Sequence record: PP430346
Strand: one strand, 5' to 3'
From: Escherichia phage vB_EcoM-LTH02
DNA: 64,000 nt
Shown: piece by piece, positions 33,290 through 45,605 of the stretch
How positions within the stretch are numbered: position 1 is the stretch's first letter
Layout: the number at the start of each line of letters is the position of its first letter
The notes under the pieces: model-generated
Databases searched by the model: none
Told to the model about the DNA's origin: nothing
The model's input: only the letters and a program-made list of their open reading frames with translations
Translations under genes and position numbers: made by a program

Positions 33290-41305
<8,016 letters not shown>

Positions 41306-41307
41306 TA

Positions 41308-42495
41308 ATGGCAGTAGGTGAAATTCAAATTAGTGCCTTGCCTCAAGCAGCCTTACCAATTGACCTTAGTGATATCTTCCATCTTAAGCAGGGTATTGAG
41401 GATAAGAGATGTACTCTTGAGCAATTACTTGCTCCACACTCAAGCCTAAAAAATAACCCTCATGGTGTTACTAAAACACAAATTGGTTTAGATAATGTTA
41501 TTAATGCTCTTCAGTTAGTCGCTGCAAATAACTTATCAGATATTGTTAATGTAGCTGAGGCAAGAGCAAATCTACAGATTATGTCTTCAGAAGAGGTTAA
41601 TAACCTTGTCCAGCAACATATCAAGGACAAGAGTAACCCACACAATACAACTAAGGCACAGGTTGGTTTAAGTAATGTCCAGAACTGGACAACATCTAAT
41701 CTGTATAACGAAGATGCAGATAAGTATGCTACAGCAAGAGCAGTAAATAACTTGTACAAGGCTGTTCAGGCTTCTTATCCAGTAGGTACTATCCATCTTT
41801 CTATGAACTCTGCAAACCCCTCTACATACTTAATTTGTGGAGGTACTTGGGAGTTGGTTTCAAAAGGTAGGGCATTGGTTGGTTATGACTCTGATACAAG
41901 GCCAGCAGGTTCTGTATTTGGTGCTTCAACTGTCACTTTGTCAGTTAATAACATGCCTCAACACTCACATTCTGTGTCTCTTAGTGGTGGCGGTCACACT
42001 CATAATGCAACTGTTTCAATTTCAGCTTTTGATTATGGAACTAAGACTACCAACTCTTTTGACTATGGAACAAAGACCACTAACACAACTGGTAACCATA
42101 ATCACGTTGGCAGTGGGTCAACAAGTGCTGCTGGTGCTCACAACCACAGATTGACCTATGAAGCAGGTGGTGGTCTATCGGAAAGACCTGCAATGGTCTG
42201 GTCTACAAGGAATGACCAATCATGGTACTCAGCAGATGCTGTCTGTGAAGTCGCTGGTTCGCACACCCACTCTTTTAGCGTTACCACTAATACAACTGGT
42301 AACCATAATCATACGGTGGGTATTGGTGCTCATAGCCATACAGTTGGTATTGGTTCACACACACACAATGGTACTGTGGCAGTTTCTTCTTCTGAGCATA
42401 CACATAGTGGAAACACTAATAGTGTTGGTGGTGGACAAGCTTTCAACATTGAACAGCCATCATTCGTACTGTATGTATGGCAGAGAACAGCTTAA
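41308..42495 (+). CDS. tail fiber protein with C-terminal HxH repeat domain
   Basis: C-terminal third holds many H-x-H motifs (HSHSVSLSGGGHTHNAT, GNHNHVGSG, GAHNHRL, GSHTHSFS, GAHSHTVGIGSHTHNG, EHTHSG) and ends QPSFVLYVWQRTA. Confidence 0.65.
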   Translation: MAVGEIQISALPQAALPIDLSDIFHLKQGIEDKRCTLEQLLAPHSSLKNNPHGVTKTQIGLDNVINALQLVAANNLSDIVNVAEARANLQIMSSEEVNNLVQQHIKDKSNPHNTTKAQVGLSNVQNWTTSNLYNEDADKYATARAVNNLYKAVQASYPVGTIHLSMNSANPSTYLICGGTWELVSKGRALVGYDSDTRPAGSVFGASTVTLSVNNMPQHSHSVSLSGGGHTHNATVSISAFDYGTKTTNSFDYGTKTTNTTGNHNHVGSGSTSAAGAHNHRLTYEAGGGLSERPAMVWSTRNDQSWYSADAVCEVAGSHTHSFSVTTNTTGNHNHTVGIGAHSHTVGIGSHTHNGTVAVSSSEHTHSGNTNSVGGGQAFNIEQPSFVLYVWQRTA

Positions 42496-42541
42496 TTTCT
42501 TTACAGGGGCTTTATAGCCCCTTTTAAGAGGAAAATTTATA

Positions 42542-44926
42542 ATGGCAGATTACAAATTGAGTGAATTAAACTCAATCGACACAATCCGTTCAGATGACCT
42601 TCTTCATGTCAGAGTTAAAAAGAGACCTGAAATGCTGGGTGATGAAGACCGTCGAATGACCTATCAAGATTTCTTAGCATCTTTTAAGCTTGAGAGATTT
42701 GTTCAGATTATTGGTAGTACCATGACGGGTGATTTAGGTATTGTTAAGTTACTTTATGGTGGTAAGACAGTATTTGACCCTACAGGCTCTTCTGAGATTA
42801 ATATTGGGGATGTTTTAAAGACTTTTAAAATTAACGCAAATGGTCTTAAGCTAACTATTGCAGATGCTTCAAGGTCGGCAACTGTTTATCATACCCTGAA
42901 TAAACCAAGTCCTAATGAGCTTGGGATGAGAACTAATGAAGAGAATGATGCAAGATACTCAAGATTAGCTGCAAATAACATCTTTACCTTCCAACAGGTT
43001 ATTCAAGCAAACGGTGAAGCCATTAGGTTAAAAAACTCTTCTGAGAACTCACCGCTGTATATTAGAGGTCAGGATAGCACTGGTGCTAATAGGTGGTATG
43101 TAGGTAATGGTTCAGGGAATGATGATGTTATTATCCACAACTACAAGACAGGTTGTGAAGTTAATCTGTCTAGTGTTGCTGCTATTAGCAAAACACTAAG
43201 AATCACTGGTCAAGTTCAACCATCTGACTTCTCTAACTTAGATGCTAGATATTTTACTCAGACAGTAGCTAATCAGAGATTTGCACAGTTAGCTGCTAAT
43301 AATAATTTTACTGGAACAAACACGTTTAGTAGAAACCTACTTATCATCAGTGACAGTGCTGCTTTAAGGTTGAAAAATACTGTAGCAAATGCTGCGCTAT
43401 ACGTTAAAGCCGAAGCTAATGATGGTTCTGGTAAGTGGTATGTAGGAAATGGTGATAATACATCTGCTGTATTCCTCAGCAACTATGTATATGGTTCTTA
43501 TCTTAGACTTGACAATGGACATGTCGCAGTCAACCAGAACTTCAGAATCACTGGTCAAGTTCAACCTTCAGATTGGGCTAACATTGACTCTAGATACATC
43601 CCAGCCGCAACTTTGAGTAACCTACCTAAACTTAATGTTGCTAACACATTTGTGAATGTGCAAACTATTGTATCAAATAATGAAGGCGTAGTATTGAGGA
43701 ACTTAACACAGGGACAGCCACAATATATCCGTGGTGTTGATACTGCGAATGTATCTAGGTGGTGGGTAGGTGTTGGTGGCACAAATTCTACTGATGTAGC
43801 ATTAAACAACAGCTACTCTGGGACTCAAATTACTCTTATGTCCTCAGCGATTAAAGCTAATAAGAATCTAACCATTACTGGTCAAGTACAACCATCTGAT
43901 TGGTCTAACTTAGATGCTAGATACTTTGTTAAGACTCAGTTATTAAATCAATCCTTGATGACTGTATCTGTAGATAATCTTGAAAACCCTTCAGCATTTA
44001 ATCTTGGGTATTCAGGTTTTGTCAGAAACAACAGTGTGACTAGTGGTCTGAAAGAGTTGGCAATTCATGTTGCTCACTCTAATAAGTCTGCTGCACACGC
44101 AAGGGGTATCTCTTTTGTATACGGTTCAAACGGTTTGGCAACATTCACCTATGCCTATGACAAAAATGGTGACTATGCCGGAGAGGCACAGCTTTACACA
44201 ACTGATTTTAAACCAACCCCTTCAGATATCGGTGCATACACTAAAGCTGAGACTGACCAGAAGATTGCACAGGCAGTAAGTGACTCTACAGACCTTAATA
44301 AAATCTACCCAGTTGGTATTGTAACGTGGTTTAACAGTAATGTTAACCCTAACACAGCGTTGCCTGGGTTAACTTGGACGTACCTGAACAATGGTGTTGG
44401 TAGAACTATCAGAATCGCAGCAGCAAACGGTTCAGATGTTGCTACAACTGGTGGTTCAGACTCTGTAACTTTAGCTGTTGGTAACTTACCATCACACACT
44501 CACAGTTTCTCTGCTACCACTTCATCTTTTGATTATGGTACGAAGGGCACTAATAGTACTGGTGGTCATACTCACTCTGTAAGTGGTACAACAAGTGCTG
44601 CTGGTAACCACGCTCACCACTTAGGTCTGCTATTGGTTAATGGTGGTGATGCTTTGTACGGATATACAACAGTTGGTAACAGCCTCCCTAGAACGCTTGA
44701 CTGGCTTGATAGAAGAGATAACAAGTTCCCTAACACTAACACAACTGGTAACCATACACACACATGGTCTGGTACTACAAGCGGTGCTGGCGACCATTCC
44801 CACTCTGTAGGTATTGGTGCTCACAGCCACACAGTTAGTGGTAACACTGGTAGTACAGGTTCTGGTTCGGCATTTAGTGTTACTAACCAGTTCTACAAGT
44901 TAATGGCTTGGGTAAGAACTGCTTAA
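42542..44926 (+). CDS. long tail fiber protein with three internal repeats and C-terminal HxH repeat domain
   Basis: Three roughly 110-aa repeats each ending ITGQVQPSD(F/W)(S/A)N(L/I)D(A/S)RY (DNA at about 43204, 43548, 43873); C-terminus [50 protein letters not shown], ending [11 protein letters not shown]. Confidence 0.7.
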
Positions 44927-45005: not shown

Positions 45006-45203
45006 ATGCCTACAATCCTAGCAATTCTTCTAAAAAATCTAGGTAGCTTCTTCTGGAAACTCATTTTATCCCTTCTAAGTGAATACATGATTGAGAAAGT
45101 GTTCTTTAGGCTTGCAAGATACCTTGCGAGTAAAACAGACACACCTATTGATGATGAGTTCGTAGATAACTTAGAAAAAGCTTTTAAGGGGGAGAATAAA
45201 TGA
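45006..45203 (+). CDS. hypothetical small membrane protein (65 aa)
   Basis: Hydrophobic N-terminus PTILAILLKNLGSFFWKLILSLL. Confidence 0.4.
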   Translation: MPTILAILLKNLGSFFWKLILSLLSEYMIEKVFFRLARYLASKTDTPIDDEFVDNLEKAFKGENK

Positions 45204-45571
45204 AGTGGCTAGAGGAAGCTTTTAAAAATAATATTGGTGCAATTGTAGTTGGTATTTTTAGTGTTATTGGGATGTATACCACCATGCAAGTCTCGGATGG
45301 TAAGCAAGAAGTGTCTATCACAACAAAGTTACAGCAGTTAGATAATTATTCCAAAAGTAATTATTCAGCTATTCGTGATTTACAGTCTGATATGAGGCTG
45401 CTTCAGCTAGGGATGGAGAACCAGAAAGTCCAGTTAGAGAATGTTAAGGGTGAGAACGCAAAACTTACTAAGACTCTTGATAAATTCTCTGATAGTGTGA
45501 ACAATCTGGCTCAATCAGTATCAGCCCTCCAAGCTATTACTGAAAAGAACACAAAGAATACTGAAAAGTAA
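45200..45571 (+). CDS. hypothetical membrane-anchored coiled-coil protein (123 aa)
   Basis: TM segment IGAIVVGIFSVIGMYTT then coiled-coil region. Confidence 0.45.
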   Translation: MKWLEEAFKNNIGAIVVGIFSVIGMYTTMQVSDGKQEVSITTKLQQLDNYSKSNYSAIRDLQSDMRLLQLGMENQKVQLENVKGENAKLTKTLDKFSDSVNNLAQSVSALQAITEKNTKNTEK

Positions 45572-45576
45572 AGTTT

Positions 45577-45605
45577 AAGGCTCCTTTTTACGGGAGCCTT
45601 TTTTG
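45577..45605. terminator. bidirectional intrinsic terminator between convergent genes
   Basis: AAGGCTCC-TTTTTACG-GGAGCCTT followed by TTTTG. Confidence 0.6.

Follow-up and report, generated by a model that had tools for sequence, protein, structure and literature searches.

The host range of Felix O1-type phages, which serve in the typing of Salmonella, in its biocontrol and in therapy, is governed by both of their fibers. The C-termini of these proteins (gp76 and gp77) were reported to resemble T4 gp37 in the Felix O1 genome paper (2010), and the VpaE1 paper (2015) described gp74 and gp75 in the same terms, found their N-termini conserved and both their C-termini and the mid-part of the long fiber variable, and identified a carbohydrate of the lipopolysaccharide (LPS) core as the receptor; for Felix O1-type phages in general, the receptors are LPS rather than proteins. 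For Sf14, a Shigella phage of the Mooglevirus group, two sets of fibers with possibly different receptors have been described (Commun Biol 2025, PMC11821841), although its authors read the fibers as Mu-like and put a C24/gp37-like domain mid-fiber. The cryo-electron microscopy structure of Escherichia phage JohannRWettstein, or Bas63 (Sci Adv 2025, PMC12609058), comprises gp26, the short tail fiber (STF), and gp27, the long tail fiber (LTF), whose collar, needle of His-x-His (HxH) motifs and head were compared with the receptor-binding tip of T4 gp37 (PDB 2XGF; Bartual et al. 2010), with seven HxH motifs in the former and six in the latter. The same work describes the LTF shaft as five beta-helix repeat domains resembling the T4 gp34 rod, finds the tips and beta-helix repeats 2-5 highly variable, and proposes different receptors for the two fibers. 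The collar-needle-head design of both fibers and the idea of different receptors are, in short, already published for this genus. Here, the homologous pair of genes is analysed in a 64,000-nucleotide stretch of Escherichia phage vB_EcoM-LTH02 (sequence record PP430346; this whole stretch is called the window), where the STF gene occupies positions 41308-42495 and the LTF gene positions 42542-44926, both on the plus strand, as are the fiber-domain, wedge and platform coordinates given below.

The two genes are read, with a probability of about 0.9, as encoding the short and long lateral fibers, predicted to be trimeric, of a Felix O1-like myovirus, each carrying a receptor-binding tip of the T4 gp37 type. 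Specifically, the open reading frames (ORFs), which an initial annotation made from the letters alone had already singled out as two tail-fiber genes, encode proteins of 395 and 794 amino acids (aa) that match PHROG 2097 (tail fiber, 2e-137) and, over its full length and with 1244 bits, PHROG 4277. The window shares 96.4% nucleotide (nt) identity with Escherichia phage EF202P1, it matches 259 phage records, essentially all of them Felix O1-like, and the LTF protein shows 100% identity to the tail fiber of vB_EcoM-LTH02; the identity to EF202P1 and the fiber match place the window, by sequence, in Felixounavirus (Ounavirinae).

The C-termini of both proteins are dense in HxH motifs, nine in the STF (all within aa 219-366; mean 1.4 and maximum 7 in 2000 whole-protein shuffles) and six in the LTF (all within aa 652-763; mean 0.47 and maximum 5 in shuffles), and the last ~235-260 residues are paralogous, aligning from aa 136 to 395 in the STF and from aa 562 to 794 in the LTF with 35% identity (BLASTP, E 1e-38). 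Both features had been proposed beforehand and hold, as does the likeness of the terminal peptides (VWQRTA and AWVRTA, with one more residue YVWQRTA for the STF and MAWVRTA for the LTF). Moreover, phmmer matches both tips to 2XGF, the STF over aa 146-366 (E 7.3e-26) and the LTF over aa 650-774 (E 5.1e-22). The initial annotation had likened the HxH repeats to both gp37 and gp12 of T4, and only the first half of the comparison is supported: no gp12 chain is found among the PDB matches at E <= 0.01 for either fiber, and the collar that precedes the needle, of the gp10/gp11/gp12 type, matches the C-terminal domain of T4 gp10. At this collar the STF reaches 68.7 bits against Pfam PF21939 Gp10_C (cutoff 27) and also matches the T4 gp10 C-terminal chains 2fkk and 5hx2 in PDB; many LTF homologs carry precomputed PF21939 matches.

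The alignment to gp37-type tips that had been suggested as a check was performed with MAFFT on four sequences, namely T4 gp37 785-1026, the two tips and one T4-like gp37, and the HxH columns of the fibers coincide with those of T4. In T4 gp37, three motifs (H883, 915 and 929) precede the head and four (H966, 980, 989 and 998) follow it; seven of the nine STF motifs fall in these columns (219, 264 and 278 before the head, 319, 333, 342 and 351 after it), and the two extra motifs, at 230 in a 13-aa insertion and at 364, lie one per strand at the collar-proximal end. All six LTF motifs fall in T4 columns (652, 676 and 690, then 738, 752 and 761), with no counterpart of T4 H998. The motifs FDYGTK and VGIGAHxHTV and a C-terminal ending of the form V/W-R-x-A are likewise common to the T4 gp37 tip and to both fibers, and the histidines at the aligned positions H219/221, H264/266 and H351/353 of the STF and at all six LTF motifs are invariant or at least 90% conserved.

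The tip of the STF can be divided accordingly into a collar domain of the T4 gp10 C-terminal or tail-collar type (41713-41952; aa ~136-215), a descending needle strand with the motifs at aa 219, 230, 264 and 278 and a tandem FDYGTKTTN duplication (41953-42147), a predicted receptor-contacting head (42148-42261; aa ~281-318) that lines up with the head segment of T4, from HxH 929 to 966, an ascending needle strand with the motifs at aa 319, 333, 342, 351 and 364 (42262-42411), and a C-terminal peptide ending in QPSFVLYVWQRTA (42412-42492) that would lead back to the collar, is aligned with the T4 gp37 C-terminus NYIVRLA and keeps W391 and R393 in every one of 44 homologs. In the LTF, the corresponding parts are the collar domain, aligned with the T4 gp37 collar and present as a single allele of at least 91% identity (44198-44485; aa ~553-648), the descending strand with the motifs at aa 652, 676 and 690 (HAHH), aligned with T4 H883, H915 and H929 (44486-44617), the predicted receptor-contacting head, aligned to the T4 head segment (44618-44752; aa ~693-737), and the ascending strand with the motifs at aa 738, 752 and 761, aligned with T4 H966, H980 and H989 (44753-44836). 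This division revises the idea that the terminal peptide forms part of the distal end: the gp37 chain turns back at the head and its C-terminus returns to the collar (as summarised in PMC12609058), so the shared W-x-R-T-A terminus, VRLA in T4, is assigned by homology to the closure of the collar, and the predicted receptor-binding head is the insert between the two HxH blocks.

The number of motifs varies in one fiber only. Nine HxH are the commonest count among 74 STF homologs (51 of them, in a range from 6 to 11), so the nine found here, against seven in Bas63, are the majority state; the listed LTF homologs have six in 120 of 120 cases. Tandem micro-duplications are visible in the STF at 42028-42087 (aa 241-260; FDYGTKTTNS/FDYGTKTTNT) and at 42323-42375 (VGIG-HxH units), and together with the range of HxH counts they suggest that the length of the needle changes as small His-box units are gained or lost. 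For gp37-gp38 of the T-even phages, Tetart et al. reportedly described in the Journal of Molecular Biology in 1996 and 1998 that short conserved motifs flanking the variable adhesin segments act as recombination joints and that His-box units are duplicated, and the tandem FDYGTKTTN and VGIG-HxH units of the STF are comparable.

The long fiber of T4 consists of four proteins; its tip sits on the distal half-fiber, of 1026 aa, and requires gp38 and gp57A. Here, in contrast, the tip would be carried by fibers made of one protein each, of 395 aa in the STF and 794 aa in the LTF. Each would be a homotrimer anchored on the baseplate by its N-terminus, and its chain would run from the collar along the descending HxH beta strand to the distal head and back along the ascending HxH strand to the collar, where it would close with W-x-R-T-A. 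By inference from T4, every HxH would be contributed by three chains, bringing six histidines round one iron ion, and the predicted metal sites would number six in the LTF and up to nine in the STF, compared with seven in T4; the ions would probably stiffen the needle of the tip. Receptor specificity would reside in the heads, which would touch the cell surface, most likely at LPS-core structures, given the analogy with Felix O1, VpaE1 and Bas63. The LTF shaft is made of gp34/gp37-type repeat domains, and homologous recombination at conserved linkers and motifs, by swapping heads and shaft cassettes between phages, gives rise to the diversity.

The gene order is in keeping with this assignment. 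In Bas63, the STF binds wedge 2A and the LTF joins wedge 1 through a 100-aa platform (PMC12609058), and the fiber genes of the window close a baseplate block in which proteins of 489 (Baseplate_J-type), 285 and 100 aa precede them. These are the homologs of baseplate wedge 2 and wedge 1, the fiber attachment sites (38674-41003; Pfam Baseplate_J; 97% and 96% identity to bas63_0023 and bas63_0024), and of the LTF platform protein Bas63 gp25 (41003-41305; 96% identity to bas63_0025, in the same position). The Bas63 succession of wedge 2, wedge 1, platform, STF and LTF is reproduced with equal lengths of 489, 285 and 100 aa for the first three, and identity to Bas63 is 97%, 96% and 96% for these and 76% and 62% for STF and LTF. 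Bas63 shares with the window the genus, the gene order, gp37-like tips on both fibers, beta-helix shaft repeats with helical linkers and, in the LTF, six HxH including an HHxH-type motif beside the head. It differs in its STF, of 382 aa with seven HxH against 395 aa and nine here, from which the two distal motifs of the descending strand are missing and whose head is another one, and in an LTF with other cassette alleles and another head. In the Mooglevirus Sf14, with the fibers gp52/gp53, the LTF is more distant, at ~48% identity.

Some results weigh against the gp37-type reading. AlphaFold2 monomer models, the structure prediction that had been proposed as a check of the tips, are of low confidence: the full-length STF has a mean predicted local distance difference test score (pLDDT) of 63, with a good collar, the highest-scoring part of the model, and a head below 50, and the full-length LTF has a mean of 42, with only the three repeats at 60-85 and the tip below 50. 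Foldseek against PDB recovers 2XGF from neither model, yielding weak matches to T4 gp10 and C24 for the STF and, for the LTF repeats, T7 gp17 (E 1.7e-3) and gp34 5NXH (E 0.11, from a low-confidence model). The LTF collar reaches 25.7 bits with Gp10_C, slightly below the Pfam cutoff of 27, and the STF may act only as an irreversible binder in a second step rather than widen the host range. As the chains belong to intertwined trimers, the monomer models do not inform the fold of the tips; since these models are of low confidence and Foldseek missed 2XGF, the tips are assigned their fold from their sequence homology with 2XGF and from the Bas63 maps in the literature.

The location of the variability bears on what the two fibers would do. 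In a sliding-window profile of DNA identity between this phage and five relatives, the flanks stay at 0.93-0.98 and the linkers and collars at ~0.9 or above, and identity drops abruptly and independently to 0.3-0.7 at the STF head, at the bodies of LTF repeats 1, 2 and 3, at LTF aa 463-552 and at the LTF head, with different cassettes replaced in different phages. The variability of the STF among 48 homologs peaks at aa 271-320, a stretch that takes in the predicted head and the distal part of the needle next to it, and where the mean identity to the query is 0.33-0.54. In VpaE1 and NBEco005 both heads are replaced, at 0.43-0.60 nt identity for the STF and 0.29-0.31 for the LTF. Because the two heads are unrelated in sequence and independently variable, two ligands are likely, and two distinct features of the cell surface are probably recognised by the phage.

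A different division of labour, which is possible though we rate it below even odds, would have the LTF scan the surface reversibly and the STF, acting like T4 gp12, lock onto a conserved site of the LPS core after rearrangement of the baseplate, so that host range would not be broadened by the second fiber. The Bas63 authors note that the STFs retain occupancy and may act like the STFs of T4, and that LTF occupancy varies on virions (PMC12609058), and the STF is the better conserved of the two with respect to Bas63 (76% versus 62%). Conversely, a hypervariable STF head that is replaced among relatives is unexpected for the binder of an invariant core site, and the STF tip is gp37-like, with no gp12 match.

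The LTF head also occurs outside the subfamily. A module of the LTF with the motifs FDYGTK and VGIGAHxHTV at its borders (44516-44835; aa ~659-764) is common to T4-like gp37: blastn aligns it with the 3' end of gp37 of the Tequatrovirus BYEP01 at 90.9% nt identity over 320 nt, 25 of its 106 codons differ, 20 of these 25 being synonymous, and the head itself (aa 678-746) is identical in protein sequence. BYEP01 gp37 is T4-like on either side of the module and is then followed by a gp38-type assembly gene, and the same head occurs in four other T4-like phages (sutha, SHBML-50-1, N2 and AV122). These phages share with the LTF its distal needle and head module; the remaining protein is T4 scaffold. 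The junctions lie within the two motifs that are common to all these tips, and many Felix O1-like relatives align with this LTF only as far as aa 665. An adjacent gp38/Tfa chaperone gene is reported to accompany tips of the gp37/Stf family in all cases (Magaziner & Salmond 2022, PMC9659904). No gp38/Tfa-type assembly gene was detected in the window (tblastn of BYEP01 gp38, best E 0.21), and no Felix O1-sized genome is among the T4 gp38 tblastn matches listed in the phage collection; such a pattern, from searches that are not exhaustive, is suggestive of a missing gp38-type chaperone in the Felix O1 context.

Upstream of the collar, the LTF shaft contains three repeats of 115, 115 and 109 aa, as expected from the initial annotation, which had counted three of roughly 110 aa with one identical 17-residue ending; that ending is exact in the third repeat only and occurs as variants in the others, with the consensus ITGQVQPSD(F/W)(S/A)N(L/I)D(A/S)RY. 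The repeats (aa 123-237, 238-352 and 353-461; 42908-43252, 43253-43597 and 43598-43924) are 35-44% identical in pairs, each matches a hidden Markov model (HMM) built from the three copies at E ~1e-56, and together they match Pfam PF20744 gp37_trimer in three stretches with 231.1 bits (cutoff 21.7). The T7 gp17 pyramid domain (4A0T/4A0U) is weakly similar in both sequence (E 1.5e-3) and fold. The gp34 rod (5NXH) is matched weakly and differs from the arrangement found here, where three copies similar in sequence are flanked by dissimilar beta domains. The HMM reveals no further copies of the repeat at E <= 10, and the "five beta-helix domains" of Bas63 must therefore include domains without sequence similarity to repeats 1-3. 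A fourth variable, beta-rich segment (43925-44197; aa 462-552) is likewise dissimilar to repeats 1-3 in sequence; it has beta strands at 506-549 in the model and a weak match to Pfam gp37_C, and it is replaced in Z31 and SeBD_211.

The variation of this shaft is discrete. When each LTF segment of 120 homologs is clustered at a threshold of 85% identity, repeats 1, 2 and 3 and the fourth segment resolve into 6, 10, 5 and 3 alleles, with minimum identities of 0.11-0.27 (22-27% for the first three), and the N-terminus, linker 1 and the collar each form a single allele. The alleles of repeats 1 and 2 occur in 21 combinations, among which are 11 quartets with all four combinations. Because discrete alleles lie between single-allele linkers, identity changes in abrupt steps and all four combinations of repeats 1 and 2 coexist, these data indicate that LTF variation arises from the recombination of cassettes at conserved linkers, not from gradual drift. 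The Bas63 paper offers three other explanations of shaft variability, and the term "recombination" is absent from its text (PMC12609058). The first of its options, relaxed constraint with gradual point mutation and no recombination, is improbable: substitutions may well be tolerated in beta-rich shaft domains, yet drift of this kind does not fit the few alleles bounded by single-allele linkers, the phage-specific replacement of cassettes or the quartets, nor the finding of the same cassette at another repeat position with 89-90% nt identity.

This relocation concerns the body of repeat 1 (aa ~145-220), the exchangeable part of that repeat. This cassette lies at LTF nt 435-714 (window 42976-43255) and matches the repeat-3 slot of two metagenomic Felix O1-like LTF genes, L007 (90.0% over 280 nt; L007:4101-4380) and L008 (89.3% over 281 nt; L008:4111-4391), and the same slot of the sequenced isolate LF110P1 (L012; 89.3% over 281 nt; LTF nt 1111-1391), whereas the protein identity between repeat bodies at different positions is usually ~30%. 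In L007 the cassette stands at positions 1 and 3 alike, in 280-nt copies with 88% self-identity. With the T4-like heads, these observations allow a wider proposal, which we put forward tentatively and hold somewhat less probable than its negation: the shaft repeats and heads may belong to a pool of cassettes shared across families and shuffled at conserved linkers irrespective of repeat position. Unlike the recombination of T-even His boxes, the exchange would here link Ounavirinae with Tevenvirinae and also act on shaft cassettes. Two further candidates were set aside. A Moogle-type repeat-1 cassette (88.5%) was rejected as a case of cross-genus transfer, as it occupies the same position and its flanks are already ~80% identical, and VpaE1_ev78 was dropped as an experimentally evolved host-range mutant, no evidence for this having been found.

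The initial annotation had suggested that DNA-level repeats could support recombination that alters host range. Recombination is borne out, through the replacement of cassettes and their relocation between positions; the repeats themselves are weak as DNA, recognisable over ~68 nt around the linker only (69-84% identity), with longest exact matches of 23, 20 and 11 nt between LTF repeats and of 23 nt between the STF and LTF tips, and copy-number change finds no support. Unequal crossing-over between repeats, by which repeat number, fiber length and hence host range would change, could draw on the ~68-nt linker block common to the three repeats and on the 88% identical copies of L007, which could support deletion. 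It is nevertheless highly improbable: 118 of the 120 LTF homologs measure 792-796 aa, the outliers are accounted for by a 30-aa difference in start site, an 8-aa head deletion and insertions of +59 aa within aa 472-548, not one of which equals a full repeat, so that no variant in repeat number occurs in the set; exact identity between the repeats here does not exceed 23 nt, and the Bas63 authors also found the repeat number invariable (PMC12609058). Lastly, that the HxH motifs are a signature of beta structure alone and bind no metal in these fibers is very unlikely, since, even if STF homologs have anything between 6 and 11 of them, they align by column with the seven HxH of T4 gp37, which coordinate Fe according to the Bas63 paper (PMC12609058), and the aligned histidines are almost invariably conserved.

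Several observations concern the surroundings of the two genes. The central spike protein (207 aa; ORF 37632-38255; Pfam PF18352) contains a single HxH, H188/H190 (38193-38201), at the residues to which the iron of the Bas63 puncturing apparatus is reported likely to bind (PMC12609058), and this would be a third type of HxH metal site predicted in the same tail. The 46-nt gap between the STF and LTF genes (42496-42541) holds a short hairpin of G and C (GGGGC-TTTATA-GCCCC) with TTTT after it, immediately 5' of the LTF ribosome-binding site, and a terminator is annotated for the corresponding gap of the Moogle record; the hairpin could adjust the proportion in which the STF and LTF are made. Downstream, the LTF gene is followed by two small membrane-type ORFs (45006-45571) of 65 and 123 aa, 100% identical to bas63_0028 and bas63_0029, the former with a hydrophobic N-terminus and the latter with a transmembrane segment and a coiled coil; a homolog of the 123-aa ORF is labelled as a putative holin in the Moogle record. 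A strong terminator-like hairpin (45577-45600; 9-bp stem and T-run) then closes the structural operon, which runs rightward, immediately ahead of the convergent gene for thymidylate synthase, which lies with that for dihydrofolate reductase in the opposite orientation. A promoter and terminator scan over the fiber locus returned counts no higher than the chance level. In records KT184313-KT184316 (KhF1-3 and XTG1), which match 41308-44926, a "cos site" and a terminator are annotated within or adjoining the tail-fiber region.

The basic architecture of these fibers is known from the literature and the finding opens no new question; what is added, namely the position-independent shuffling of cassettes and a head module common to T4-like phages, is modest and does not constitute a new kind of system. 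In practice, the predicted heads (STF aa ~281-318 and LTF aa ~693-737) provide coordinates for fiber engineering, for which the recombination joints would also be useful, that is, FDYGTK and VGIGAHxHTV round the heads and the ITGQVQPSD linkers round the shaft cassettes. If the proposal of a shared pool is true, it would explain the variability of the beta-helix repeats, which the Bas63 authors termed unexpected, and the shaft cassettes would carry a selected function, such as lateral contacts with the receptor or evasion of defence systems. In the same case, a gp37-type head would fold in the Felix O1 context without a chaperone of the gp38 type.

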